A DNA stretch of 64,000 nt from Polaribacter sp. Lineage in GTDB: Bacteria; Pseudomonadota; Gammaproteobacteria; GCA-001735895. Of the stretch, positions 19 through 46,173 are shown in pieces (positions within the stretch are counted from its first letter, which is position 1; every line of letters begins with the position of its first letter). The position numbers were made by a program, and so were the translations under genes. The DNA is taken from NCBI GenBank assembly GCA_047615545.1, contig JBLHID010000001.1:8586-72585 (forward strand). The letters run 5' to 3'. The notes below the pieces were generated by a model, which was given only the letters and a program-made list of their open reading frames with translations, was not told the origin of the DNA and ran no database searches.

Positions 19-1134
19 CTATATTCTGACGTAGTGGCCGCCAGGTGCTGATTGAATAAGCTCGTCGAGCTCTAGTAACAGTAGCATGGATGAAACCTTG
101 TCGATGGTCAAGCCACTGCGTTCTACCAATGTGTCCGTTGATATTGGGTCATAACCCATTTGTTCAAGTAGCTCGTTATAGACTATATCTAGTTTATTAC
201 TGGCTTTAATCGACGCCGAAGAAGGTTGCTCAGTGACTGGTTGGCTAGCGATATAACCGAGTAAGCTCGACAGATCCTCAATAATATCGGACGCTTTGTC
301 CGCTAATCGAGCGCCTTCTCTGATCAGTTGGTGGCAGCCCCGCACTTGCGGATTATGGATTGACCCAGGAATGGCAAAAACCTCTCGCCCTTGTTCAACG
401 GCTTGATGCGCGGTAATGAGTGAGCCGCTTCGACGAGCGGCTTCTACGACCAAAGTGGCGACACTGAGTCCGCTAATAATGCGGTTTCTGCGGGGAAAGT
501 TTTCGCTACGCGGGCTTGTACCCAGTGGGAATTCCGTGACCAATAGCCCATCCGAATGAATGTCGTAAGCCAATTGCCGATTTTTGGCAGGATAAATTTT
601 ATCCAGACCAGTGCCTGTCACCGCTATTGTCTTGCCTGTGCCGGTTAAAGCGCCTACATGGGCGTGAGTGTCGATACCCATTGCCATGCCGCTTGTTATG
701 GTAATGCCGGCGTTGGATAAATAGGCAGCAAAGTCACGTGCTGTTTTTGCGCCGCCAGGGGTGCAGTTACGGCTGCCAACTATCGCAATTTGGGGGTTAG
801 AGAGTAAATCGATACTGCCACTGCAGTAGAGGAGCGCTGGGTAGTTTGCGGTTTGCTTCAACAATGCGGGGTAAGCGTCATCGTCGAAGCATATAATGTG
901 ATTATTTGGTTGTTCTGCCCAAGCGAGTTCTTTTTCTACTTGGCCTTCGTTGGGGGATTTTATCTGGTCTATTTGCCGCGCTGACAACCCTGCTGCTTGC
1001 AGGTCATGTCTACTGACACTGAATATCTCGTTGAAATCACCACCGAACTTTTCACGCAAGTCGAGCAAAGATACTCGACCAATTCCGAAAACGTGAAACA
1101 GTCGTAGAAAATTAGCAAATTGATCCTTTTGCAT
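19..1134 (-). CDS. dprA: DNA processing protein DprA (Smf)
   Basis: 371-aa ORF with the DprA Rossmann-like core (GIDT..HxG, GTGLDKIYPAKN). It lies divergent from def, as in many gammaproteobacteria. Confidence 0.85.
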   Translation of the reverse strand: MQKDQFANFLRLFHVFGIGRVSLLDLREKFGGDFNEIFSVSRHDLQAAGLSARQIDQIKSPNEGQVEKELAWAEQPNNHIICFDDDAYPALLKQTANYPALLYCSGSIDLLSNPQIAIVGSRNCTPGGAKTARDFAAYLSNAGITITSGMAMGIDTHAHVGALTGTGKTIAVTGTGLDKIYPAKNRQLAYDIHSDGLLVTEFPLGTSPRSENFPRRNRIISGLSVATLVVEAARRSGSLITAHQAVEQGREVFAIPGSIHNPQVRGCHQLIREGARLADKASDIIEDLSSLLGYIASQPVTEQPSSASIKASNKLDIVYNELLEQMGYDPISTDTLVERSGLTIDKVSSMLLLLELDELIQSAPGGHYVRI

Positions 1135-31438: not shown

Positions 31439-32437
31439 ATGAAAATTAAAGTCGGTATTAATGGTTTTGGACGTATTGGACGCATGGCTTTCCGTGCAAT
31501 TAGAAAAGACTTCCCCAATTTAGAAGTAGTAGGTATTAACGACCTGCTTGATAACGATTATCTTGCTTACATGCTGAATTACGATACAGCACATGGTCGT
31601 TTTGACGGTGATATAGAAGTTGACGGTAATAGCTTTGTGATTGATGGTAAGCGGATAAGTCTATCTGCTGAGCGTAATCCTGAGGAATTAAAGTGGGGTG
31701 AAATTGGTGTTGACGTGGTGCTTGATTGTACTGGTTTTTTCCTAACCGAGATAAGTTGTCAGGCGCATATTAATGCAGGTGCGAAAAAAGTAGTTCAATC
31801 AGCACCGCCTAGGGACAGTACGCCGATGTTTGTTTATGGCGTAAACCACAAAGAATATACGGGCCAAAATATTGTATCTGCAGCTTCGTGTACCACTAAC
31901 TGTCTTGCACCAATCGCTAAGATTGTTCACGACAACTGGGGGCTTAAGCGCGGATTGATGACAACGGTTCACGCGGTGACTGCATCACAAAAAACGGTTG
32001 ATGGCCCATCAGAAAAAGACTGGCGTGGTGGTCGTGCGGTATTTGAAAACATCATTCCTTCTTCGACAGGTGCCGCAAAAGCGGTAGGAATAGTTTTGCC
32101 TGAGCTTGATGGCAAACTGACCGGCATGGCTTTTCGTATTCCTTCGATCGACGTTTCTGTTGTTGACCTAACGTGTGAGCTAAACAAGCCAGCCTCTTAC
32201 GAAGAAATATGTAGCGCTGTTAAAGAAGCTTCTGAAGGTTCAATGAAAGGAACATTGCAATACACTGAAGACAAAGTCGTTTCTTCAGATTTCCGTGGTA
32301 TCAGCGCATCGTCAATCTTTGATGCAGGCGCTGGTATTGCACTAGATGACACTTTTGTGAAGTTGGTTGCTTGGTATGACAATGAATATGGTTATACCTG
32401 CAATATGTTGCGTTTAGCTGAACATGTTGCAGCTTAA
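31439..32437 (+). CDS. gapA: glyceraldehyde-3-phosphate dehydrogenase
   Basis: [16 protein letters not shown]-terminus and the active site [10 protein letters not shown]. The ORF-track start at 31406 is an upstream extension. Confidence 0.92.
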
Positions 32438-32479
32438 GTTCTATAAAGTAGCCTAAAGGCTTAAATAATGGAAAGAACG
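32345..32479 (+). repeat. left copy of a ~135-bp direct repeat (last 31 codons of gapA plus ~40 nt downstream)
   Basis: The sequence gatgacacttttgtgaagttgg...gttgcagcttaa recurs at 40723-40856. The two copies share 90/93 nt in the coding part (3 substitutions, 1 non-synonymous) and ~70% identity after the stop. Confidence 0.85.
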
Positions 32480-32644
32480 GAAGCCATTCAGGCTTATTCG
32501 GTTGGTTGAACATAGGTCAACATCTGTTTCCTGAAAGGCACTACCGAAATTTCGGAAGCGTATTTTTTGAATCGTGGAAAAGAATCATGATATAAACTGC
32601 CAAGCATTATAGAGACATGTTGACTTGTCCGTACTCTGCTCCTA

Positions 32645-34438
32645 TTACCCATGACTGCTGCGCTTCGACAACCAGCTCCCAGAATAAGTCTCATAGTAAC
32701 TCCGTAACCATAGGTCCATCCCCTCTGCAGGTTGTGGATTCGCAAAGTAATAGCCTTGCAGGTTATCGCATCCAAGACCTTTAAGCGTATCAAGTTGCTT
32801 TTCGGTTTCGACACCCTCGGCAACGACCCGCAGGCCAAGATTGTGACCCAGGTCAATAATCGACTTAACGATCAAAAAATTGTTTTTGTGTTCTAGTTTT
32901 TTTACAAAAGACTGGTCAATCTTGACCTCTTTAACGGGGAGTTGATGAAGATAGGTTAACGAGGAATATCCGGTACCAAAATCATCGATCGATAATTCGA
33001 TACCATTTTCATTTAGATTTCGCAGCTGTGCCTCCACTCGAGGAGAATTGCCCATTAGATGATTTTCCGTTACCTCCATTACCAGACCGCCCTGAGGTAT
33101 ATCCCAACTTTGCATTAGATTTACGATCCACTCGGGGTCCAATACATTACTATCGCTAAAGTCATCCGGAGAGACATTGACGGATACCTTGTTTATCACA
33201 CCCTCTCTAATCCAGCTTGAACATTGCTCCATTGCCGTTGCTATAACCCATTGAGTGATCAATGAAACCATATTGTTTTTCTCAGCAAAAGGAATGAAGT
33301 CGATAGGCGATAGCACTCTACTATCCGGGTGGTGCCATCGCACTAGCGCTTCAAGCCCAGGTGCTGATTGATGATTTGAGTCGACTTGAGGTTGATAGTA
33401 AATTTCCAACTGGTTTTCTTTTATCGCCGTAATCAAATCGGCCCGCAAATTTATAGTTAAGTCGTTCTTGGGGTCAATGGATTCGTCATAAACTGTAAAT
33501 GCTCTTCGTGAACGTTTGGCATCATACATTGCGATATCAGCCTTTCGTAACAAATCATCGACCGAGCTACCGTGAAGTGGATATTCCGCAATTCCAAAAC
33601 TACCGCTAACGACTACCTTGTGTTCTTCGTATTCTACTGGTAAATCACAAGCTTCAATTAAATTCTCGATAACCATGGCCGCTTCTACACTGCTGGTTTG
33701 ATTCAAAATTAAACAAAATTCATCACCACCGATACGAGCCAGTGTGTCACTGTTTCTCAAGCGCGCCATCATCCTGTTGGACACTTCCTGTAACACTAGG
33801 TCACCAGCTCGATGTCCCAGCGTATCGTTAATGGCTTTGAAATCATTTAGATCCAAGATCGCTAATACAAAATTGCCCTTGGCACGTTCCGCTAATGCAA
33901 TATAGCGTTTGCCACAATCCAGCAATAGTTTGCGGTTCGCAAGCCCCGTCAATGGATCGTGCAAGGAATCATAGGCATGTTGTTGGTCGGCGTCAGCAAG
34001 CTGAGTGGTGAGCGCCTCCAGCTCAGTATTGCGCCGAGCCAGTAAAATATTTTGTTGCCATAATTTTTTAAAAATCTTCACCTTGCCGATCAAAATCTCT
34101 TCATTTAATGGTTTGCAAATATAATCGACTGCACCGGCCCGATAGCCCTTGATTGAAAAATGTTCTTCTTTATTGATCGCAGTCAGAAAAATAATTGGTA
34201 TATTTGCGGAGCTTTTATTCGATAACATTAAGTCAGCAGTTTCGAAGCCATCCATGTCCGGCATATTTACATCGAGTAGCACCAGGAAGAAGTCATGCTT
34301 CATAACCTGAACCAAAGCACCTTTACCCGAATCCACCTCTATAATTTCAATTTCCAGGGATGCTAGCACTCTGCGTAAGGCATACAGATTATTGGGCTTA
34401 TCATCGACAATCAGTATTTTTGGGAGAGGTTCATTCAT
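32645..34438 (-). CDS. response regulator with REC-GGDEF-EAL domains (c-di-GMP turnover)
   Basis: 597 aa with an N-terminal receiver (ILIVDDKPNNLYAL..DVNMPDMDG), a GGDEF motif (RIGGDEFCLIL) and EAL motifs (EALVRW, DDFGTGYSSL). Confidence 0.88.
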   Translation of the reverse strand: MNEPLPKILIVDDKPNNLYALRRVLASLEIEIIEVDSGKGALVQVMKHDFFLVLLDVNMPDMDGFETADLMLSNKSSANIPIIFLTAINKEEHFSIKGYRAGAVDYICKPLNEEILIGKVKIFKKLWQQNILLARRNTELEALTTQLADADQQHAYDSLHDPLTGLANRKLLLDCGKRYIALAERAKGNFVLAILDLNDFKAINDTLGHRAGDLVLQEVSNRMMARLRNSDTLARIGGDEFCLILNQTSSVEAAMVIENLIEACDLPVEYEEHKVVVSGSFGIAEYPLHGSSVDDLLRKADIAMYDAKRSRRAFTVYDESIDPKNDLTINLRADLITAIKENQLEIYYQPQVDSNHQSAPGLEALVRWHHPDSRVLSPIDFIPFAEKNNMVSLITQWVIATAMEQCSSWIREGVINKVSVNVSPDDFSDSNVLDPEWIVNLMQSWDIPQGGLVMEVTENHLMGNSPRVEAQLRNLNENGIELSIDDFGTGYSSLTYLHQLPVKEVKIDQSFVKKLEHKNNFLIVKSIIDLGHNLGLRVVAEGVETEKQLDTLKGLGCDNLQGYYFANPQPAEGMDLWLRSYYETYSGSWLSKRSSHG

Positions 34439-34701
34439 TTTGTAAATCCATTAGCATTATTAGCAACGTTAATTCTTCCATAGATAAAGGTTCTGTCCAC
34501 CCAAATTGCTTCGATAGCTGCTCGTGGCATCACTTTTGCCTCTGCAACGCAGTCAAATAACACGTTTATAGACGACTGCGAATAGTTGACCCAATCGTTG
34601 AGAGAAAGATTGAATATTTTATCACTTTCGACCCGCAGATATCGACATTGCCGTACTTGCCTAGGATGCTCGCAGCTGCCGAGAAACTGGTGGCGGTCTT
34701 T

Positions 34702-35526
34702 TCATACATGCGCTAACCGCCGATATATTCGTTCTTTGTGCTCAAAGCTTTCGTACTCATGATCAGAATAGGTTAGCGATTCTTGGGTGCCCAAGACTAA
34801 AAAGCCACGGGGCACCAAGCTGTCGGAAAATAACTTCAATGTTCGATTTTGAAGGTTACGACCAAAATAGATCATCACATTGCGACAGATCACTACATTC
34901 ATTTCGGCAAAAACACCATCGCGGATAAGATTGTGATTGGCGAAGGTGATGCGATCGCGTAGCGTTTTCACCATGCGTGCAGAGTCGTAACCTGTTTGAT
35001 AATAATCCGAAAATGAGGATTTACCACCTGATTTCATATAGTTATCAGTATAAGTCTTCATCAGGTTTATCGGGAAAATTGCCTTTTTAGCCGATGACAG
35101 AGCCTTGTTATTGTAGTCCGTCGCATAAATACGGCAACGATCCAGCAGGCCTTCTTCTTGCAACAAGATTGCCATCGAATAAACTTCTGCTCCGGTAGCG
35201 CAACCCGCATGCCAGATATTGATTCGGGAATAGGTACGCAATTTTGGAATAACCGTTTCGCGAATCTTTTTAAAGACCCAAGGGTCACGGAACATTTCCG
35301 TGACCGTGACCGACATGTCGGTCAAAAAGCTTTCAAAAAAAGCTTGATCATGCAAAACCAACGGAATCATTTCAGATACCCGCTCTAATCCAGTAATAGC
35401 CAGACGTTGCGAAACGCGACGATTTAACGAGGCACGCGCATAATCACGAAAATCGTAACCCCAGCGTTTGAAAATAGCCTCCAGAAACAAGTCGACTTCC
35501 AGTTCATTGATATTGGGTTTTTCCAC
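34702..35526 (-). CDS. CheR-type SAM-dependent protein-glutamate methyltransferase (stand-alone)
   Basis: 274 aa with a CheR N-terminal helical domain and a SAM-binding core (IWHAGCATGAEVYSMAILL; NVVICRNVMIYF). No CheA, CheW, CheB or MCP gene is present in the cassette. Confidence 0.8.
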   Translation of the reverse strand: MEKPNINELEVDLFLEAIFKRWGYDFRDYARASLNRRVSQRLAITGLERVSEMIPLVLHDQAFFESFLTDMSVTVTEMFRDPWVFKKIRETVIPKLRTYSRINIWHAGCATGAEVYSMAILLQEEGLLDRCRIYATDYNNKALSSAKKAIFPINLMKTYTDNYMKSGGKSSFSDYYQTGYDSARMVKTLRDRITFANHNLIRDGVFAEMNVVICRNVMIYFGRNLQNRTLKLFSDSLVPRGFLVLGTQESLTYSDHEYESFEHKERIYRRLAHV

Positions 35527-35529
35527 GAT

Positions 35530-38500
35530 CTAGCGGCCAAATTCAGTACGTTCGAACAACCATACGCGCAGCATCGACTTTAATATCTCGACATTGATCG
35601 GCTTGGTTAAATATTCCGACGCACCAGCATCAATACATAAGGCGCGGTCTTCTGGCATTGCTTTGGCAGTCAATGCGATCAACGGCAACTCAGCAAACTG
35701 GCTGATGCCTCGAATTTTCCGCATGGCTTCGTTGCCATCCATAACGGGCATCATGATATCCATCAACACCAATTCTATGCTCGGATTTTCATTTAGTTTA
35801 TCGAGGGCAACTTGACCGTTTTCTGCCATCAAAACATTAAGACCTAGCTGCTGTAGCTCTCTCGACAGGGCATAGACATTGCGCATATCGTCGTCAACTA
35901 AAAGAATCGTTCTGTCTCGGAACAGCATATCATCGTTGTGTAACATTCCGACTTCCTGTTTTTCCTCGCGTTGACCGTTTACCACGCCGCTGTGCAAAAA
36001 CATTGCAACTTCATCAATTAAACGCTCGGGGGACTCGGCACCCTTGACAATAACACTGCCGGTAAACCCTAGGAGACGTACAGTCTCTTCATCGGTCAAC
36101 TCACGTCCGCTATAGATAATAATTGGTGGCAATGCGTTTTTGCTATTTTTGGACACTTTTCTCAGGATATCAAATCCACTCATGTCAGGCAGTTCCAAGT
36201 CCAAGATAACGCAATCAAACTGCTTCGACTTTATATGCCTACAAGCATCTTTGCCATTACTGGCGAATGTGAACTCGATAGTAGAACCGCGAAACAGCGA
36301 AGCGATCGCTTGTTGGTTGCCCTGATCGTCTTCGACCACAAGGATGTGGCGTATATTTTCCAATGATAGACGGTTGATATCGCCAAGGGCCGATTCAATA
36401 TCTTCTCTGGTCACGGGTTTTTGCAGATAGCCGGTGATGCCAGATGCGATTACCTCACCTTTTCGATCAAAACCAGAAATAACATGTATCGGAACACTAG
36501 CGGTCCTAGCCTGGTACTTCAGTTGCTTAATAACCTCTAGGCCGTCGATATCGGGCAATCCCATATCAAGCAATATCCCACATAGTTGGAATTCCGTCGT
36601 TAAATACAACCCGCTGCGGCCATCGGCGGCAGCCAGACATTTGTAGCCACTCGAACGCACCGTGTCCATCAACGTCTGGGCGAAGTCGCTGTCATCTTCA
36701 ATGATCAGTATGGTCTGGTCGCCTTCCTCTATTTGATTTCGGTCATCGCTAATATACTCGGTTGGTCGAAGTTCGACAGCTAAAGCCGTTAGCCCTGGTC
36801 CTGCAAAAGATGTCTGTTGCTGCGCTGCAGGGTTGATTTTTTTTGCTTCACTTCGGTCTTCTTCATTTAAGGGCAAATAAAGACTGAAACAGCTACCTTC
36901 ACCCTCTTTACTCTCTACCAAAATTTCCCCACCTAGTAAATGTGTGAGTTCACGGGATATCGAGAGGCCCAAGCCCGTTCCACCATGTTTGCGACTAGTA
37001 GTACCGTCCACCTGCTGAAAAGCGTCGAATACCAGTTGCTGTTTATCCATTGGAATGCCGATGCCGGTGTCGATTACCGAAAATACCAACAGGTCCTTAT
37101 TTTTCAGTTCGTTTAAACCAGGGTCCATATTAGAGTTATGCGGGGATATTCGTAAAGTTACCTTGCCGGTCTCGGTGAATTTGAACGCGTTCGAGAGAAA
37201 ATTTCTCAATATCTGTTCTAGACGCTGCCCATCCGTATTGATCGATTCGGGTGCTGTGTCGGTAATATCCACCTCGAATTTCAGATTCTTCGAAGTTGCA
37301 ACTGGATTGAACAACCGTTGCAAACCGTCGCTAAAGGGTTCAAGTTCTACCAACTCATCATTAACCATCAACATGCCGGCCTCCACCTTGGACAAGTCCA
37401 TGATGTCATTGATCAGGTTCAGTAAATCCTGACCGCCTTCGTAGATAATTTTGGCATCTTCAATTTGCTCATCCTGTAAGTTGCCGAGGCGGTTGGACAT
37501 CAAACTTTTTGACAGTAATAACATGCTGTTTAACGGGGTGCGAAGTTCGTGTGACATATTGGCCAGGAACTGTGATTTATAGGTGTTGATCACTTTAAGT
37601 TCATGGGCCTGTTCTTCAAGCTCGATCTGAACCTGCTTGAACAATACATTGCTAGCTTCGATTTCTTTTTTCTGCTTTTGCAGCGATTCGGTCTTTTCCT
37701 CCATCTCTTCATTGGAACTTCGCAATTCTTCCTGTTGAGTCTGCAATTCCTCAGATTGAGTCTGGGACTCTTCGAGAAGATTACTAACCCTTTCCTGATT
37801 TTGGCCGGCGCGCACCGCTATTGCGATGGCACCTGACACTAATTCGACAAACTCTATCTGCAAGTCGGTGAATGGCTCGAAGGATCCTATTTCGATTGCA
37901 CCGATGACCCGGTCTTCGAGCCTGAGCGGTACTATCATCAAGTGACGCGGTACTGCTCCACCAAGCCCCGAATTGATCTCGATATAATCATCTGGCAACT
38001 CTGATACCATAATGGTATTGGCGTCTTGAATAGCCTGACCCACCGAGCCTTCTCCGGCCTTAATCGTCCTCAGGGCATGTTTGTGGTGGGAATAGGCGTA
38101 ACTACCTGTCCGGGTGTAGGCATCGTTGTCATTGGCTAAATAAATAACACCGACCGAAGCCCCCACATATTTCGCCAAACCGATGATTATACTGTTACTT
38201 AGCTCATCTAATGCTCGACCCGCACCCATGACATCCGCCATCTCTGCCTGACCATTTTTGGTCCACTGAAAGCGTTCGTTTAGCTCAGCGGAACTCATGA
38301 TGACGTTAAGCACGTTGCGAATCATAAAAAAGGAAAAGATCCCGCCTAAAATAGTACTTAGCACCAATGTAGTGAGAATCAAAAAAAGGTTCTCGTCGAA
38401 CACCTGGTTACCCAGCTCTCGGTTAGTGTCCATCGATAGTTTATTCGCAGTAACCACTTCGCTGATAATTACTTCGGCCTGATCCGCTAATTCTCGGCCT

Positions 38501-40221
38501 TTACCTGAGGCAAGATCGAATGCGAGCTGATTGCCATTTTGCCTCGAGAGCATTCGAACCTTTTCATTGATGGCCAGAAAATTTAACCAGGATTGCTCAA
38601 AGCGGTTCAGAGAGTTCAATTCATTGCCAATGGACAGGAGTTTTAATTGTTTGATCTTTTCTCCCAAGTTAGATTTGAATAACGCTAACGAATCAGAAAA
38701 ACTGTCCATGCCTTCCTGTGTTTTTTCGAGGATCAGACTCTTCTCAGCCCGGTGTATTGCCAACATGTCCTGGATCATGCGCGAAACGATCAACTTTCGT
38801 TCGTTTGCCAGCGCCAGCTGATTTACGCTCTCAATGTTTAGTGCGACATTTCCCTTGACGGTAATATCCAGTTGCAGTTCAGCCTGATCCGCTAATAGGC
38901 GTCCTTCATTTGTGGCTAGATCAAAAGCACGTCGGTTTCCATTTTCCCGAGAAAATTTACGTACCTGGATGTTGTGTGCGCGGTAATTCTTATAAGCTAG
39001 TTTCGATTTTTGGAACGAATTCATATTTTCGCTGTTTGTTTCGAGTGCCGCCTGCAATCGGTCGAAGCGCCTATCGATTTCGATTTCCAGATCCAACATT
39101 ATCTGCATGTATGTGTCTTTGTCAGTCTGGGTTGGCGCCAGAATCAGGTTTTTTTCTGCGCGCTGATACTCCACTACATTGCGCAACAGCCGTGATGTCG
39201 ACTGAATAATCTGGCCGGAGTTCAGCAGTTTGAAAACATCGGTAGAGATATCATCGCTCTGAAAGCGCTCTTCGTGAAATTTACTTATTTTGAATAGCGC
39301 GGTTTCAAGAGTTTCGAAAGATTGTCGCGCATCGCCGATAGACAAGTTGAGTGCGCGAACATTGGAGTTAAGCAGGGTTAATTCTAGCACCTGTTGGTAG
39401 ACATCGCTCCACTGGTTCCATGTTCGGGAAAACTTGTCTAGATCAGAACTACCGTCTGCGGTCGTCAGTTCTCTTAAAGCCCTTCGATTGGAGAACAAAT
39501 CATCTTGTAAGACTTCAATGCGGTTCGCGTACTGACGCATATCCTCGACGTTGGTTGATAGAATAATATTTCTTTCTGCGCGCAGTATTAACAGCATATC
39601 ATTTTGAATCTGGGTGCCGTAAACAATTTTTAGTTGAGCACCAGCCGCCCGTTTCTCGTAACTTTCCGCTGTCTGGTCGGCCACGGCAACAATACCACGC
39701 AGCTCTGTTTCGGCGTTATCGAAGGCGCTGCGCGCCGCCGTTGCAGATAGCTCTCTGGCTTGTACATTTGAGTTCAGTCGTGCATATTCGCGGACCTTGT
39801 TGTCAATAGCCATGTACTCGGATATTTTTTGACGAAACTTGATAATCTTGTCGCTGTTCTTCTTATCTACTAGTGTTTGAATTAAATTCACGCGTTCAAT
39901 TAAATCGAGATGTGTTTGTTGGATAAAGACTGCATATTCATCCATTTCAGCTTGGGTTTGAGCAGTAATAATATTTTTTTCGGCCCGCGTTATCTTCAAT
40001 AAATCTTGCTGAATTTTTTCACCAAGCTGTAATTTATTCGCAGAAATATCCACGATGTCGTTCACATTTTTTTTAAGAGCCTCTAACGCGTTAATACCCA
40101 CGATTCCGACACCCAATATGGCAATAATCAGTAAAGCACTGATTATTGCCAATTTAATACCAATGGCTCGTTGCGATTCAGTCATAATTTTGATCCCTTT
40201 AATATCACCGCTGGTTATCAA
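35530..40221 (-). CDS. giant hybrid sensor histidine kinase: TM, four tandem helical sensor repeats, TM, GAF, coiled coil, HisKA, HATPase, three REC domains
   Basis: 1563 aa. Four ~120-aa periplasmic repeats each carry an R-A-E-(K/R)-(N/S)-(I/L)-IL motif. The H-box is MSHELRTPLNSM and the G-box is GGTGLGLSISRELTHLLGGEI. The three receivers carry ILIIEDD..LDMGLPDIDG, ILVVEDD..LDLELPDMSG and ILLVDDD..MDIMMPVMDG. Confidence 0.85.
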   Translation of the reverse strand: MITSGDIKGIKIMTESQRAIGIKLAIISALLIIAILGVGIVGINALEALKKNVNDIVDISANKLQLGEKIQQDLLKITRAEKNIITAQTQAEMDEYAVFIQQTHLDLIERVNLIQTLVDKKNSDKIIKFRQKISEYMAIDNKVREYARLNSNVQARELSATAARSAFDNAETELRGIVAVADQTAESYEKRAAGAQLKIVYGTQIQNDMLLILRAERNIILSTNVEDMRQYANRIEVLQDDLFSNRRALRELTTADGSSDLDKFSRTWNQWSDVYQQVLELTLLNSNVRALNLSIGDARQSFETLETALFKISKFHEERFQSDDISTDVFKLLNSGQIIQSTSRLLRNVVEYQRAEKNLILAPTQTDKDTYMQIMLDLEIEIDRRFDRLQAALETNSENMNSFQKSKLAYKNYRAHNIQVRKFSRENGNRRAFDLATNEGRLLADQAELQLDITVKGNVALNIESVNQLALANERKLIVSRMIQDMLAIHRAEKSLILEKTQEGMDSFSDSLALFKSNLGEKIKQLKLLSIGNELNSLNRFEQSWLNFLAINEKVRMLSRQNGNQLAFDLASGKGRELADQAEVIISEVVTANKLSMDTNRELGNQVFDENLFLILTTLVLSTILGGIFSFFMIRNVLNVIMSSAELNERFQWTKNGQAEMADVMGAGRALDELSNSIIIGLAKYVGASVGVIYLANDNDAYTRTGSYAYSHHKHALRTIKAGEGSVGQAIQDANTIMVSELPDDYIEINSGLGGAVPRHLMIVPLRLEDRVIGAIEIGSFEPFTDLQIEFVELVSGAIAIAVRAGQNQERVSNLLEESQTQSEELQTQQEELRSSNEEMEEKTESLQKQKKEIEASNVLFKQVQIELEEQAHELKVINTYKSQFLANMSHELRTPLNSMLLLSKSLMSNRLGNLQDEQIEDAKIIYEGGQDLLNLINDIMDLSKVEAGMLMVNDELVELEPFSDGLQRLFNPVATSKNLKFEVDITDTAPESINTDGQRLEQILRNFLSNAFKFTETGKVTLRISPHNSNMDPGLNELKNKDLLVFSVIDTGIGIPMDKQQLVFDAFQQVDGTTSRKHGGTGLGLSISRELTHLLGGEILVESKEGEGSCFSLYLPLNEEDRSEAKKINPAAQQQTSFAGPGLTALAVELRPTEYISDDRNQIEEGDQTILIIEDDSDFAQTLMDTVRSSGYKCLAAADGRSGLYLTTEFQLCGILLDMGLPDIDGLEVIKQLKYQARTASVPIHVISGFDRKGEVIASGITGYLQKPVTREDIESALGDINRLSLENIRHILVVEDDQGNQQAIASLFRGSTIEFTFASNGKDACRHIKSKQFDCVILDLELPDMSGFDILRKVSKNSKNALPPIIIYSGRELTDEETVRLLGFTGSVIVKGAESPERLIDEVAMFLHSGVVNGQREEKQEVGMLHNDDMLFRDRTILLVDDDMRNVYALSRELQQLGLNVLMAENGQVALDKLNENPSIELVLMDIMMPVMDGNEAMRKIRGISQFAELPLIALTAKAMPEDRALCIDAGASEYLTKPINVEILKSMLRVWLFERTEFGR

Positions 40222-40722
40222 CGCTCAGAAAACTTTTCCGATATAAGTTCAAACCCATGTAACTAATGTCCGTAATGACCCAGCCGACAGCGGTATTGCT
40301 AGCATAGTCGAGGACCACAGAGCCCCACTTTGTGTCAATACTTGATAACCTTTTTATTAATATTTTTAGCTTAATTTTAACCACTAGTGTTTGAGGGGAA
40401 GGCAATGGGAAACTCAATAATTCAGCCGAATTCTAAGCTAAATCGGGCTAAAAAGCATGTTCGGTGCCTATTTGTTAAAATATACTGTAAGTAAATATCT
40501 ACGAATCAATCGGACCGACCGGCTTTAATGAAATAGACACAAGCCGCATTATCCAGCATTTGGTATCACTTTAAGACATTGATATCATTCCGGCAAAGTA
40601 CCGTAAAGAACCAATTTGAGTCGCTATTAGGAACGTCTGCCTATTTGACGGGGCCACCAAACAGAATCTGTTTTTTATAAAAAATCTGAAATGTACGGGT
40701 ACTGAATATGCGCAGTATGAAT

Positions 40723-40856
40723 GATGACACTTTTGTGAAGTTGGCTGCTTGGTATGACAATGAATATGGTTATACCTGCAATATGTTGCGCCTAGCTGAA
40801 CATGTTGCAGCTTAAGCTCTATAACGCAGCCCAAGGCCTAAATCATGAGAAGAACA
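40723..40856 (+). repeat. right copy of the ~135-bp direct repeat (orphan gapA 3' fragment of 31 codons plus stop, then diverged flank)
   Basis: It encodes [30 protein letters not shown] with no upstream gapA body. It is nearly identical to 32345-32437 and defines the distal boundary of the 8.4-kb insertion. Confidence 0.85.
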
Positions 40857-41187
40857 AGCACGATGACTGAGGGAAACGTTGGTGTCTCTCGATGCGGCGC
40901 CTATTACCATTGCAGTGCGAGTTGTATTCACGGTGCATGCTTTTACATTTAGCGAGTTATCAAAGGGAGATGTTAAAAATATCCCCTCTGTGCTTTTTGT
41001 TTTAATAAAGGTACATCTTAGAGGTGGTTTGCCTGCCGATGTTATTGAAGTATAAAAAAGGGGCTGTATACCTATAGCACCTTCAGAGAGGGGTCTTATG
41101 ATAGGATGTTTGACTCTTGCTATTCACGGGGAGCACCGATGAGATATGATGCACCCCATAGTAATTAATCCCTTTTGAGAGAAAAAA

Positions 41188-42726
41188 TTGTCTACTTCCA
41201 ATTCTAGGCGTAACCCCACTTTACTGGTGATTATGGACGGCTTCGGCCTGAATCCGTCACCAGAGCATAATGCCGTGTTCGAGGCAAATACCCCCAATCT
41301 GGATCGCTACTTTTCGACTTACCCTACGACAGAGCTAGAAGCGTCGGGACGTGCTATCGGTCTACCTATGGGACAAATGGGTAATTCGGAAGTTGGTCAC
41401 ATGACCATCGGCAGTGGCACGGTAGTAAAACAGGATCTGGTGCGAATCAATGATTCTATAAAAGATAAAAGTTTCTTCCAAAACTCCGCTTTCGTCGGTG
41501 CAATTGAAGCTGCCAAACGTAAAAATCGACCAATCCATTTAATGGGTTTAGTGTCTGATGGTGGTGTGCACAGCCATATCGACCATTTATTGTCGCTGAT
41601 AGATTTGTGTGCGGCACACCAAGTTGTGCCTCAAGTGCATATGATAACGGATGGCCGAGACACCAGCCAGCAAGCTGCGCTTAGCTTTATACCCTTGCTA
41701 GAAGAGCGACTGAGCAATTGCGGTGGGTTTATTGGGAGTGTCAGTGGGCGATTTTATTTGTTAGACCGCGATAGGAGATGGGATCGAGTGCAATTGGGCT
41801 GGGATGCTATTGTTGGTGCCAGTGCTGTTCAGGCCGATTCCGCGAGCGAAGCGGTGGAGCAAAGCTATGCAGCGGGTCAATTTGATGAGTTTATAAAGCC
41901 AACGCTATTGCCTAAGTTTTCACCCATTCAAGCAGGCGATGAACTGATTTTCTTCAATTTTCGAAATGATAGAACTAGAGAAATAACAGCCGCGCTGTCT
42001 AAAAATCATTTTGAGTCGGTGAATAGAGGTGAAAATTTCGTGCCAATCAAAGTCACTTGCATGACTTTATACGACGATGACTTTAATTTACCTATTGCCT
42101 TTCAACCTACCCGACCGAGCGTCACGCTGGGAGGTTTAATTAGTGATGCAGGTCGTCGTCAATTGCATTGTGCAGAGACCGAAAAGTATGCGCATGTTAC
42201 CTTCTTCTTCAATGGTGGACGCGAGGCGTGTTTTGACGGCGAAGAACACAGGCTCATCAAGTCTCCCAGAATCGCCACCTACGATTTAATGCCAGAGATG
42301 AGCGCGGCAGAAGTGACGGAGACAATGATAGCCGCATTGCAATCAAGAGAATTCGATTTTCTAGTGGTTAACTATGCAAACGGCGACATGGTCGGACATA
42401 CCGCAGTGAGAGATGCCGTTATTAAGGCCGTCGAAGTGCTAGATCATGAAGTAGGACGGCTGCTTGATGTCGCTATAGAACTCGGTTATTCAGCATTATT
42501 AACGGCAGACCACGGTAATTGTGATGAAATGGTCGACCCGAAAACTGGTGCGCCTCATACCCAACATACGCAATACCCTGTGCCCTGCATGGTTGCCGAC
42601 AAAGGTGTGGAATCGCTAGCCAGTGCTGGAAACTTGTCCGCAATTGCACCAACCGTATTGCAAATAATGGGAATACCGCAGCCGAAGGCGATGACGGGAA
42701 AGTCATTAATATTGGATGCGTGGTAG
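41188..42726 (+). CDS. gpmI: 2,3-bisphosphoglycerate-independent phosphoglycerate mutase
   Basis: 512 aa with the iPGM metal-site motifs (LLVIMDGFGLN, GNSEVGHM, MITDGRDT) and a TTG start. Confidence 0.9.
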   Translation: MSTSNSRRNPTLLVIMDGFGLNPSPEHNAVFEANTPNLDRYFSTYPTTELEASGRAIGLPMGQMGNSEVGHMTIGSGTVVKQDLVRINDSIKDKSFFQNSAFVGAIEAAKRKNRPIHLMGLVSDGGVHSHIDHLLSLIDLCAAHQVVPQVHMITDGRDTSQQAALSFIPLLEERLSNCGGFIGSVSGRFYLLDRDRRWDRVQLGWDAIVGASAVQADSASEAVEQSYAAGQFDEFIKPTLLPKFSPIQAGDELIFFNFRNDRTREITAALSKNHFESVNRGENFVPIKVTCMTLYDDDFNLPIAFQPTRPSVTLGGLISDAGRRQLHCAETEKYAHVTFFFNGGREACFDGEEHRLIKSPRIATYDLMPEMSAAEVTETMIAALQSREFDFLVVNYANGDMVGHTAVRDAVIKAVEVLDHEVGRLLDVAIELGYSALLTADHGNCDEMVDPKTGAPHTQHTQYPVPCMVADKGVESLASAGNLSAIAPTVLQIMGIPQPKAMTGKSLILDAW

Positions 42727-45147: not shown

Positions 45148-46173
45148 ATGAGTATGGATGAAGAGCGTTTGATTACCCCTGAAATTGTCAGCCAAGAGCT
45201 ATCACAGGACAGGGCATTGCGCCCCAAGTTACTCGATGACTATATCGGGCAACCTGAAGTTTGTGAGCAAATGGACATATTCATACAAGCCGCCAAAAAT
45301 CGTAGCGAAGCCTTAGATCACGTATTGATATTCGGCCCACCAGGTTTAGGTAAAACAACTTTGTCGCACATCATCGCCAACGAAATGCAGGTAACATTGC
45401 GCCATACCTCTGGGCCCGTGTTGGAAAAGCCTGGTGATCTTGCCGCTATATTGACAAACCTGGAGCCTCATGATGTGCTATTCATTGACGAAATTCATCG
45501 ACTGAGTCCCGTTGTAGAAGAAATACTCTACCCCGCAATGGAAGACTATCAACTCGACATCATGATCGGTGATGGCCCCGCCGCGAGATCGATAAAGCTT
45601 GATTTACCCCCCTTTACTTTGGTCGGCGCTACGACAAGAGCAGGGTCATTGACCTCCCCATTACGTGACCGATTCGGTATAGTGCAACGGCTTGAATTCT
45701 ACTCAAGCAAAGATTTGACCACGATTATTTTAAGATCCGCCGCGTTACTCGAAATAAAAATCGACCAGAGTGGCGCAACAGAAATAGCGTTACGTTCACG
45801 CGGCACACCCAGAATAGCCAACCGATTGTTACGGCGCGCAAGAGATTACGCCGAAGTGAAAGCCGATGGTGTGATATCGGATTCCATCGCGAAATTAGCG
45901 CTCGATATGTTGAAAGTCGATCGTTCAGGCCTTGATCACATGGACCGACGACTCATATTGGCGCTCATCGAAAAATTTGATGGTGGCCCAGTTGGTGTAG
46001 AGAGTCTCGCCGCCGCAATCGGCGAAGAGCGAGGTACGATTGAAGACGTCATCGAGCCTTATCTGATACAACAGGGCTTTATGATGCGAACGCCCAGAGG
46101 CCGAGTAGTGACAGCACGTGGCCATGCCCATTTTGGTTTTACTCCAAAAGGGAAAGCCGAAATTGAGCAATGA
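45148..46173 (+). CDS. ruvB: Holliday junction ATP-dependent helicase RuvB
   Basis: 341 aa AAA+ protein with Walker [11 protein letters not shown], Walker [10 protein letters not shown] and a winged helix. Confidence 0.92.

Follow-up and report, generated by a model that had tools for sequence, protein, structure and literature searches.

A gene for a hybrid histidine kinase that is directly followed by one for a CheR-like methyltransferase and then by one for a REC-GGDEF-EAL response regulator raises the question of what kind of signalling system these genes form, what it may sense and what it may control. The genes lie in a stretch of 64,000 nucleotides, here called the window, and their host is a marine gammaproteobacterial MAG. 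A preliminary description, made from the letters of the window, had read them as a self-contained, chemosensory-like pathway of a kind not yet described.

Gene content and domain organization

The module is composed of the kinase, CheR and REC-GGDEF-EAL genes only (Table 1), and the CheR start is located 3 nt past the kinase stop codon. The true start of the kinase is likely the ATG at 40185 (M13, with AAGGGA just ahead), which would give a protein of 1551 aa. The kinase ORF presents the order TM1, four helical repeats of ~137 aa, TM2, GAF, long helix, HisKA/HATPase and three receivers; Pfam and the ORF coordinates agree with the preliminary description in this order, in the absence of an Hpt domain and in the neighbouring genes.

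Table 1. Features of the three-gene locus and its flanks, in window positions, with residue numbers for the parts of the kinase.
Feature	Position	Strand	Remarks
Direct repeat copy 1	32345..32464	+	3' end of gap gene and sequence downstream of gap gene
Response regulator REC-GGDEF-EAL	32645..34438	-	Pfam; follows CheR after 263 nt
RsbM-type CheR-like SAM-dependent methyltransferase	34702..35526	-	Pfam CheR_N and CheR
Hybrid histidine kinase ORF	35530..40221	-	1563 codons from TTG
TM1	40081..40158	-	residues ~22-47; hydropathy scan
Sensor repeat 1	39667..40080	-	residues 48-185; 4HB_MCP_1-like; RAEKN at residue 79
Sensor repeat 2	39256..39666	-	residues 186-322; RAERN at residue 214
Sensor repeat 3	38842..39255	-	residues 323-460; RAEKN at residue 354
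Sensor repeat 4	38392..38841	-	residues 461-610; RAEKS at residue 491
TM2	38320..38391	-	residues ~611-634; hydropathy scan
GAF domain	37813..38214	-	residues 670-803; Pfam GAF_2 E 1.2e-15
Signalling helix (S-helix), GAF to HisKA	37579..37812	-	residues 804-881
Three heptad-spaced Glu-Glu pairs	37705..37752	-	E824/E825, E831/E832, E838/E839 in SEELQTQQEELRSSNEEM
HisKA / DHp	37375..37578	-	residues 882-949; phospho-acceptor His891, codon 37549-37551
HATPase_c	36865..37233	-	residues 997-1119; Pfam
Receiver 1	36373..36711	-	residues ~1171-1283; Asp1219
Receiver 2	35992..36345	-	residues ~1293-1410; Asp1341
Receiver 3	35569..35907	-	residues 1439-1551; Asp1488
Direct repeat copy 2	40723..40842	+	92% identical; orphan copy of gap-gene 3' end

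In the AF2 model, an unbroken helix spans residues 786-909 (model helix 147-270), starting at the end of the GAF domain, including the EE heptads and reaching the H-box, with a pLDDT of ~85-91 in the EE-heptad part. This S-helix is conserved across the kinase family. Pfam assigned Response_reg to three stretches of the kinase, and the acidic pair, phospho-acceptor Asp, Ser/Thr and Lys are present in all three receivers.

The three-gene segment is bounded by the two direct repeats, of which copy 2 precedes the kinase start by ~500 nt. Scanning positions 32300-41300 for promoters and terminators gave chance-level results, and the Rfam search of the whole window returned a single tRNA and nothing else. 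In a scan of genome contigs, the best match was 42% identical, among the matches listed.

The four-module periplasmic sensor

TM1 and TM2 bracket a stretch of ~563 residues, and TM1 and helix 1 of repeat 1 form one continuous helix in the AF2 model. The four repeats have a period of ~135-140 aa and align nearly without gaps. They share the core R-A-E-[KR]-[NS]-[IL]-I (residues 79, 214, 354 and 491). Invariant in all four are R, A and E in helix 1, an N-x-N in the turn between helices 3 and 4, and four residues of helix 4 (A, L, R and E). Smith-Waterman scores of the repeat pairs ranged from 127 to 182, against ~34 +/- 6 for shuffles (z of 14-23 in five pairs and 5.3 for R2-R3), and the observed score was equalled by none of 300 shuffles. 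Pfam recognized 4HB_MCP_1 (PF12729) in three stretches of the sensor (E 7.2e-20; 71.7 bits vs. a cut-off of 27), and each repeat was modelled by AF2 as four helical segments with a pLDDT of ~90. No CHASE3, NIT, HBM, HAMP or Hpt domain was found by Pfam in the kinase protein at E <= 0.1. CHASE3, NIT, HBM, TarH and HAMP were rejected as the family of the sensor, for which this threshold gives only 4HB_MCP_1. These results uphold the earlier reading of the region as four concatenated four-helix-bundle modules, and the shuffles confirm genuine duplicates instead of spurious self-similarity. The repeat length given then, ~120 aa, was too short, and from the guess of a 4HB- or CHASE3-like module only the 4HB part stood.

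Against PDB sequences, neither the complete periplasmic region nor a profile built from the four repeats matched anything above chance level. In Foldseek, the best match of the sensor was the periplasmic domain of McpZ from Sinorhizobium meliloti (PDB 8F7N, E 5e-4), the global superposition of which on the sensor model is poor (rmsd 18.6 Å). The McpS HBM (2YFA) and the TorS sensor (3O1I) matched over two modules, with TM of 0.61-0.64, and the fold matches also included SMC- and Rad50-like rods. As modelled, the window sensor shares with McpZ, McpS and TorS an all-helical, extracytoplasmic architecture of several four-helix-bundle modules with shared long helices. Unlike them, its modules are true tandem sequence repeats with a constant ~135-aa period, and no sequence similarity to a chain of solved structure could be detected. 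McpZ has three concatenated modules, whereas the window sensor has four and its relatives two to six. The helix-length pattern also differs, being 2-1-1-2-1-1 in HBM and 1-1-1-2-1-1-2-1-1-2-1-1-1 in the AF2 model of the sensor. The helices at the module junctions are predicted to be continuous, and the predicted four-module arrangement (pTM 0.56) is at odds with an upright sensor.

It is conceivable, if on balance doubtful, that the ~135-aa RAEKN module represents a distinct class of extracytoplasmic sensor, made of true tandem four-helix bundles with continuous shared helices, present in 2 to 6 copies changed by in-register recombination, used by chemoreceptors as well as kinases, and with a geometry that departs from the upright stacking in 4HB, HBM or McpZ. 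Since such an array would not be an upright stack, it would signal across the membrane differently, and, with one ligand for each module, it could integrate several of them. The repeats might instead be a rod or scaffold that docks a periplasmic partner, as TorS does with TorT, or that monitors some physical property of the envelope, with the copy number tuning length and not ligand range. TorS in complex with TorT (3O1I, TM 0.61) and the SMC- and Rad50-like rods are among the fold matches, the junction helices are continuous in the AF2 prediction, and the modules all share the same conserved polar residues, in keeping with a structural role. In addition, chemoreceptors and kinases carry 2 to 6 copies of the module in tandem, and this number differs even among close orthologues. 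However, 4HB_MCP_1 is a ligand-binding family, the bimodular HBM domain of McpS binds ligands with both modules (PMC11804620), and a partner gene conserved beside the kinase was not found in the related loci compared, so that we hold a mere rod or scaffold to be rather improbable. Helical sensors with one, two and three modules are known, and the four-module sensor lengthens this series, in a family that reaches six modules; it poses a concrete structural question, namely how such an array is seated on the membrane and by which mode it signals.

Proposed kinase methylation and phosphotransfer

In Bacillus cereus, the S-helix of the kinase RsbK is methylated by RsbM, an orphan methyltransferase; the phospho-His of RsbK is H505, its REC is inhibitory, it has no Hpt, and a direct phosphotransfer from H505 to RsbY has been proposed (PMC4574943). 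RsbK-like kinases, 127 in number, are spread over 10 phyla, and Priestia, Lysinibacillus and Niallia are among the species with RsbK homologues in S3 Table of that work (PMC4574943).

Next to their RsbK-type kinases, Priestia and Lysinibacillus (L087 and L088) encode CheR-like proteins with which the window CheR shares 49-53% identity (E 1e-95 to 4e-103). Residues 639-1279 of the kinase are 35% identical in BLASTP to the RsbK-type kinases of Priestia, Lysinibacillus and Niallia (E 1e-108 to 4e-114). The REC of the Priestia and Lysinibacillus kinases has its best match in REC3 of the window, which corresponds to the one inhibitory REC that RsbK-type kinases have (45-52% identity, BLASTP). The loci of Priestia megaterium and Lysinibacillus encode CHASE3-GAF-HK-REC, CheR-like and REC-SpoIIE proteins, which is the RsbK-RsbM-RsbY layout. 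Judged by this homology, the window locus can be assigned to the RsbK/RsbM type known from B. cereus, and the earlier statement that it was not a described system is not supported as regards the kinase-CheR pairing. The second Glu of each of the three EE pairs is located at -66, -59 and -52 from His891, in the same register as the EE heptads of RsbK-type kinases (-73/-66/-59/-52 from the His), and the three pairs are candidate methyl-acceptor sites. Chen and coworkers reportedly identified, in 2012, E439 and E446 as the methylation sites of RsbK; we take these to be H505-66 and H505-59, corresponding to the -66 and -59 Glu positions in the window.

The survey of CheR genes next to GAF kinases for which the preliminary description had called covered 80 loci among the matches listed, of which 54, picked by a tblastn-coverage criterion, were usable. 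CheR adjoins the kinase in 25 of these, and many phyla are represented. In four of the related loci (L001, L002, L003 and L005) CheR is directly downstream of a GAF-S-helix-HK-REC kinase, and in L004 it is nearby. EE heptads, scored as two or more EE[LM] motifs in the 105 aa preceding the phospho-His, were present in 23 of the 25 kinases with a CheR neighbour and in 3 of the 29 without it (Fisher p = 9e-10, ignoring shared ancestry; 54 loci, among the matches listed). The exceptions are two kinases with a CheR neighbour and fewer than two motifs, and three CheR-less ones with at least two. The CheR-less relatives keep the coiled coil and have K-E, A-E or T-E where EE stands. Heptad EE pairs before the H-box may serve as a sequence rule to predict CheR clients among GAF kinases. 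The synteny, this co-variation and the homologous system of B. cereus (PMC4574943) strongly suggest that the CheR-like enzyme methylates the kinase itself, as had been supposed; the accompanying idea of adaptation found no support.

CheR could also be an ordinary chemoreceptor methyltransferase acting on MCPs elsewhere in the genome, with its position reflecting co-regulation only and the kinase unmethylated. Its CheR_N and CheR domains are complete and many MCPs carry the same 4HB repeat module. Nevertheless, this is very improbable given its score of 82.7 bits with the chemotaxis CheR equivalog profile (cut-off 435), its identity to RsbM-type proteins, its tight placement after GAF-S-helix kinases across phyla, the co-variation with the EE heptads, the lack of MCP, CheA and CheW in the module, and the in vitro methylation of RsbK by RsbM (PMC4574943, citing its reference 20). 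As to the phosphoryl group, it might follow a multistep phosphorelay from His891 to a receiver of the kinase, then to an unlinked Hpt and to a regulator elsewhere, with the adjacent REC-GGDEF-EAL not being the main target. All phospho-acceptor residues are kept in the three receivers, which could serve such a relay; 263 nt separate the REC-GGDEF-EAL gene from CheR, the downstream gene differs in most relatives, and a three-repeat relative (P0093) has its own Hpt. We regard this relay as unlikely, since Pfam finds no Hpt in the kinase, the REC of RsbK is inhibitory and works with no relay step and no Hpt (PMC4574943), and the orthologous locus L001 keeps REC-GGDEF-EAL after CheR despite an otherwise different neighbourhood.

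The GGDEF motif, the RxxD I-site and the EAL catalytic motifs of the regulator are all intact. Downstream wiring is variable among relatives: most have a REC-HisKA-HATPase gene in the place of REC-GGDEF-EAL, and in L042 an HK-CheR-CheB set is followed by a GGDEF gene. The spacer between CheR and the regulator shows only patchy alignment with the orthologous locus, and at this distance the regulator may have its own promoter. REC-GGDEF-EAL is the presumed phosphotransfer target, and a c-di-GMP output of the kinase is plausible from the adjacency and the one orthologous locus.

We therefore propose, as a reasonably probable reading, a three-gene RsbK/RsbM-type signalling module that joins sensing by 4HB modules, CheR methylation of the EE helix and direct transfer to REC-GGDEF-EAL. 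With its four concatenated modules of 4HB_MCP_1 type, the kinase would sense something in the periplasm, and the signal would run from TM2 through GAF and one long signalling helix to the DHp helix with His891. Judging by homology, the CheR-like enzyme, translationally coupled to the kinase and a putative RsbM orthologue, would methylate Glu residues of the EE pairs on this helix, most likely E825 and E832. Methylation would set the output state of the kinase, possibly with the same sign as in B. cereus, where RsbK is kept off by methylation together with its C-terminal receiver. Since there is no Hpt, His891 would most likely hand its phosphoryl group straight to the REC of the adjacent regulator, altering c-di-GMP turnover, and the internal receivers may be inhibitory or phosphate-sink domains, with REC3 corresponding to the REC of RsbK.

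Comparison with known signalling systems

The kinase protein is of the HisKA class with no MCPsignal domain in Pfam, and tblastn with a CheB query from L003 (E <= 1e-8) found no CheB in the 64-kb window, while the same query found CheB beside CheR in 15 related loci. The reading as a self-contained chemosensory pathway was rejected because MCP, CheW and CheA are missing from the module and CheB from the window. Reversible, methylation-based adaptation cannot be inferred with no CheB in the locus or the window, RsbM of B. cereus being likewise an orphan, and methylation would thus more probably control a set-point or gain than provide rapid, reversible adaptation.

The Wsp system of Pseudomonas includes the MCP WspA, the CheR WspC, the CheB WspF, the CheA-type kinase WspE and the REC-GGDEF protein WspR. 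The two systems are alike in having a CheR-type methyltransferase tied to a membrane sensor and, as final output, a receiver-controlled c-di-GMP enzyme. However, Wsp has a true MCP, CheW proteins, a CheA-class kinase and CheB for adaptation, whereas in this module, with none of these, the HisKA-class kinase itself is the presumed methyl acceptor.

To our knowledge, work on histidine kinases methylated by a CheR-like enzyme has been almost confined to B. cereus, and the same module is now seen in a marine gammaproteobacterium, apparently tied to c-di-GMP control. Neither the methylatable kinase nor the sensor overturns current understanding.

The closest system is RsbK-RsbM-RsbY, with which the locus shares the core of GAF, EE-pair signalling helix, HisKA/HATPase and C-terminal REC, the CheR-like gene directly downstream of the kinase, the register of the EE pairs to the phospho-His, the lack of Hpt and of a paired CheB, and a response-regulator gene beside the pair. 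The CHASE3-HAMP sensor and the REC-PP2C partner are marks of the B. cereus prototype and not of the wider RsbK-type family, whose sensors vary. The locus departs from RsbK/RsbM in the four-module sensor, the missing HAMP, the two extra receivers and the presumed c-di-GMP output. RsbK of B. cereus senses via CHASE3 and has HAMP, whereas the window kinase has four tandem 4HB_MCP_1 modules and no HAMP detected by Pfam; RsbK has a single REC, whereas the RsbK-like REC is here separated from the kinase core by two extra receivers; and RsbY is a REC-PP2C protein of sigma-B partner switching, whereas the partner in this Gram-negative marine gammaproteobacterium, a host unlike B. cereus, is a REC-GGDEF-EAL protein of c-di-GMP signalling.

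Domain organization and sensor of the hybrid kinase

The reading frame of the hybrid histidine kinase was confirmed as real. Its true start is more likely the ATG of residue 13 (position 40185), which has AAGGGA ahead of it, than the TTG from which residues are counted here. Hydropathy places hydrophobic segments at about residues 22–47 and 611–634, with about 563 residues between them, in agreement with the preliminary description of two transmembrane helices around a region of about 560 residues. The GAF domain, coiled coil, HisKA/HATPase and three complete receivers (REC1–REC3) that it listed were borne out by Pfam and by intact receiver residues; the acidic pair, acceptor Asp, Ser/Thr and Lys are kept in all three. 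The Pfam scan of the kinase found no Hpt, as stated before, and no HAMP, CHASE3, NIT or HBM. An unbroken helix is predicted from the GAF end past the H-box (residues 786–909; AlphaFold2, residues 640–1135), and corresponds to what is called a signalling helix (S-helix) in the Bacillus cereus hybrid kinase RsbK.

Features of the kinase and its surroundings (residues counted from the TTG start)
Feature	Position	Strand	Remarks
Kinase ORF	35530..40221	minus	1563 codons counted from TTG
Sensor repeats	residues 48–185, 186–322, 323–460, 461–610		alignment nearly gap-free
GAF	residues 670–803		Pfam
HisKA	residues 882–949		Pfam
HATPase_c	residues 997–1119		Pfam
Three receivers	acceptor Asp 1219, 1341, 1488		Pfam and residue inspection
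CheR	34702..35526	minus	start 3 nt past kinase stop
REC-GGDEF-EAL	32645..34438	minus	263 nt beyond CheR
120-nt direct repeat	32345–32464 and 40723–40842		copies 8378 nt apart, 92% identical, on either side of the three-gene segment
RuvB	45148–46170		

The core R-A-E-[KR]-[NS]-[IL]-I occurs four times in the sensor, at residues 79, 214, 354 and 491. The alignment of the repeats has 11 invariant columns, which are RAE and an Ile in helix 1, a Val in helix 3, N-x-N at the helix 3/4 turn, and A, L, R and E in helix 4. Smith-Waterman scores were 127–182 in five pairs of repeats (z 14–23) and 65 between repeats 2 and 3 (z 5.3), on a shuffle baseline of about 34 ± 6, and none of 300 shuffles reached the observed scores; thus, the repeats are genuine and not the product of spurious self-similarity. 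The four repeats with an R-A-E core described earlier stand, but with a period of about 137 aa instead of about 120. Among the names proposed for them, Pfam gives 4HB_MCP_1 (three stretches, E 7e-20).

The AlphaFold2 model of residues 13–645 (nt 38287–40185; 48 aligned sequences) presents a mean pLDDT of 90.2 and a pTM of 0.56, and is all-helical with four helical segments per repeat. The last helix of each repeat continues unbroken into the first helix of the next, in junction helices of about 71–76 residues (model positions 139–209, 274–349 and 416–486), and the predicted helix-length pattern is 1-1-1-2-1-1-2-1-1-2-1-1-1. If the junction helices are straight, both chain ends would lie at mid-level of a two-tier array, and the last helix would face away from the membrane at even copy numbers. 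The four helical segments of each repeat agree with the concatenated four-helix bundles suggested previously. The straight-junction layout would be at odds with a 4HB or HBM sensor standing upright. The best PDB fold match (Foldseek) is the ligand-sensing domain of McpZ (8F7N, E 5e-4), which PMC11804620 names as the first trimodular sensor structure, followed by matches over two modules to McpS HBM (2YFA, TM 0.64), the TorS sensor (3O1I), PilJ (7ZJR) and NasR NIT (4AKK). No sequence-level similarity of the sensor to solved chains was found.

The RAEKN module and its copy number

A profile of the four repeats, run against 1.84 billion representative proteins, had 1368 matches at E ≤ 1e-3, of which 126 reached E ≤ 1e-30. 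The RAEKN module is thus a small subfamily; it is common to chemoreceptors and kinases. Among the best 150 matches, most have two copies and about a quarter have three, and four copies are seen in five, among them three MCPs and the window's own cluster. Six matched stretches are present in two of these 150, a 1170-aa MCP and a 775-aa protein, the latter with five copies by Pfam and motif count. The spacing between copies is steady at about 135 aa.

The closer homologue P0001 (73% identical to the window kinase) keeps all four repeats. The 55%-identical orthologue P0003 (locus L001, 148–4443) lacks window residues 289–413, about one repeat, by a deletion between repeats 2 and 3, which indicates that copy number shifts by recombination between repeats even in close relatives. 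The module is therefore a tandemly expandable unit, and this multi-module sensor, with its geometry, is one main point of interest of the analysis.

Proteins P0005–P0009 (775 aa), found on many short contigs, consist of five RAEKN modules in tandem, without an output domain that could be recognised; an example is the NCBI 'hypothetical protein HOD58_04975' of a Gammaproteobacteria MAG. P0013 (679 aa; locus L005, 8001–14476) has two 4HB repeats, HAMP, GAF and EEL heptads and ends just past the heptads, without a kinase domain. Its gene immediately precedes those of a PAS-GAF-HK-REC kinase and a CheR, and the protein may serve as a methyl-accepting sensor that lacks a kinase.

Gene neighbourhood and glutamate pairs

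The segment of kinase, CheR and REC-GGDEF-EAL genes lies between gap and a phosphoglycerate mutase gene. The first copy of the direct repeat comprises the last ~93 nt of gap and about 40 nt downstream, and the second is an orphan gap 3′-end fragment that lies some 500 nt upstream of the kinase. This bracketing suggests that a segment of about 8.4 kb was inserted among consecutive glycerol and glycolysis genes; it contains neither an integrase nor a transposase. Exact matches assign the window to a MAG contig of 78,208 bp. Cluster-mates of its conserved proteins (RuvB, RuvA, glpK, TolB) carry the labels Gammaproteobacteria or Candidatus Azotimanducaceae, and in gene content (tolQRAB-pal, about 45% GC) the window is gammaproteobacterial. 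By these features, the NCBI label 'Polaribacter sp.' of this MAG bin is probably wrong.

A strongly conserved core of GAF, coiled coil, HisKA/HATPase and receivers is common to homologues whose sensors differ widely (4HB repeats, CHASE3, PAS, HAMP); its coiled-coil segment reads ..SEELQxQQEELRxxNEELEE... Against the chemotaxis CheR equivalog, which has a cut-off of 435 bits, the window CheR scores only 82.7 bits. The pairing of CheR with GAF kinases, noted beforehand in the window, recurs elsewhere: CheR is present at all five metagenome loci examined for such kinases, directly downstream in L001, L002, L003 and L005 and nearby in L004, and L003 and L004 have a stand-alone CheB beside it. A genome survey gave 80 loci of many phyla among the matches listed, of which 54 were usable (match spanning GAF to HisKA), and 25 of these have a CheR neighbour. 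At least two EE[LM] motifs within 105 residues before the phospho-His occur in 23 of the 25 loci with CheR versus 3 of the 29 without it (Fisher p = 9e-10, uncorrected for phylogeny, for the 54 loci among the matches listed). Relatives without CheR, e.g. in Streptomyces and Acidobacteriota, retain the coiled coil with K-E, A-E or T-E replacing E-E. If CheR has the EE pairs as its substrate, this is the pattern one would expect, and such an EE-heptad rule for CheR-client kinases is the other main point of interest.

CheB follows CheR in at least 15 related loci; it is stand-alone, of about 200 aa and without a receiver, in L003, L004, L011, L012, L031, L033–L035, L040, L042, L049, L051 and L056–L058. 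A REC-HisKA-HATPase gene often comes next, in a recurrent four-gene module absent from the window. In L004 (3012–7881), the CheR-CheB pair has an H-NOX (HNOB) gene and several PAS/GAF kinases as neighbours, and a 4HB-PAS-GAF-HK-REC kinase whose EEL heptads form two sets lies downstream of them. The kinases in which K-E, A-E or T-E replaces Glu-Glu while the coiled coil before the H-box is retained are large GAF kinases that lack CheR; they come from Streptomyces, Acidobacteriota, Alphaproteobacteria and other groups (L014, L016–L018, L020–L022, L027–L030, L036, L061 and more).

In the window REC-GGDEF-EAL protein, the GGDEF motif is intact, and the RxxD I-site and every EAL catalytic motif are present. 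The orthologous L001 also has this regulator after CheR, amid genes that are otherwise unrelated, and in L042 HK-CheR-CheB is followed by a GGDEF gene; the commonest downstream gene in relatives encodes a REC-HisKA-HATPase protein.

Relationship to RsbK/RsbM

In B. cereus, the CheR-like RsbM, without a paired esterase, methylates RsbK on the S-helix and holds sigma-B off; RsbK (CHASE3-HAMP-GAF-S-helix-HK-REC) has an inhibitory C-terminal REC and lacks an Hpt, H505 has been proposed to pass its phosphoryl group directly to RsbY, and 127 RsbK-like kinases are distributed across 10 phyla (PMC4574943). For comparison we used RsbK-type loci of Priestia megaterium and Lysinibacillus, species listed as having RsbK homologues in S3 Table of PMC4574943, which present kinase, CheR-like and REC-SpoIIE genes, as expected. 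The window CheR shares 49–53% identity with the CheR-like proteins of these loci (E 1e-95 to 4e-103), and kinase residues 639–1279 are 35% identical to their kinases (E about 1e-112), whose single REC best matches REC3 (45–52%). The second Glu of the EE pairs lies at −73, −66, −59 and −52 from the phospho-His in RsbK-type kinases and at −66, −59 and −52 from His891 in the window. Positions −66 and −59 from B. cereus H505 correspond to residues 439 and 446, reportedly the major and minor methylation sites mapped by Chen et al. in 2012. By these homologies and the matching register, the window module is a member of the RsbK/RsbM family. The preliminary description, right in anatomy and neighbours, had not recognised the architecture as a described system, yet the module does belong to one, and methylation-based adaptation is unsupported here, since tblastn found no CheB in the locus or the 64-kb window.

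Anatomy, homology, synteny and co-variation were shown by the analysis, and from them we infer a mechanism with a ligand, a methyl transfer of a given sign and a phosphotransfer partner. In the best-supported version, periplasmic input would run from the 4HB array across TM2 and on to GAF and the S-helix. The RsbM-type CheR would methylate E825 or E832 (possibly also E839), setting kinase output; His891 would transfer directly to the receiver of the adjacent REC-GGDEF-EAL regulator, and the internal receivers, chiefly REC3, would act as inhibitory or sink domains.

The window module differs from the known system in several parts. Four 4HB modules replace the CHASE3 sensor of B. cereus RsbK, whose HAMP has no counterpart detected by Pfam; two more intact receivers precede the RsbK-like REC3, whereas RsbK-type kinases have a single REC; and REC-GGDEF-EAL takes the place of REC-PP2C as partner regulator.
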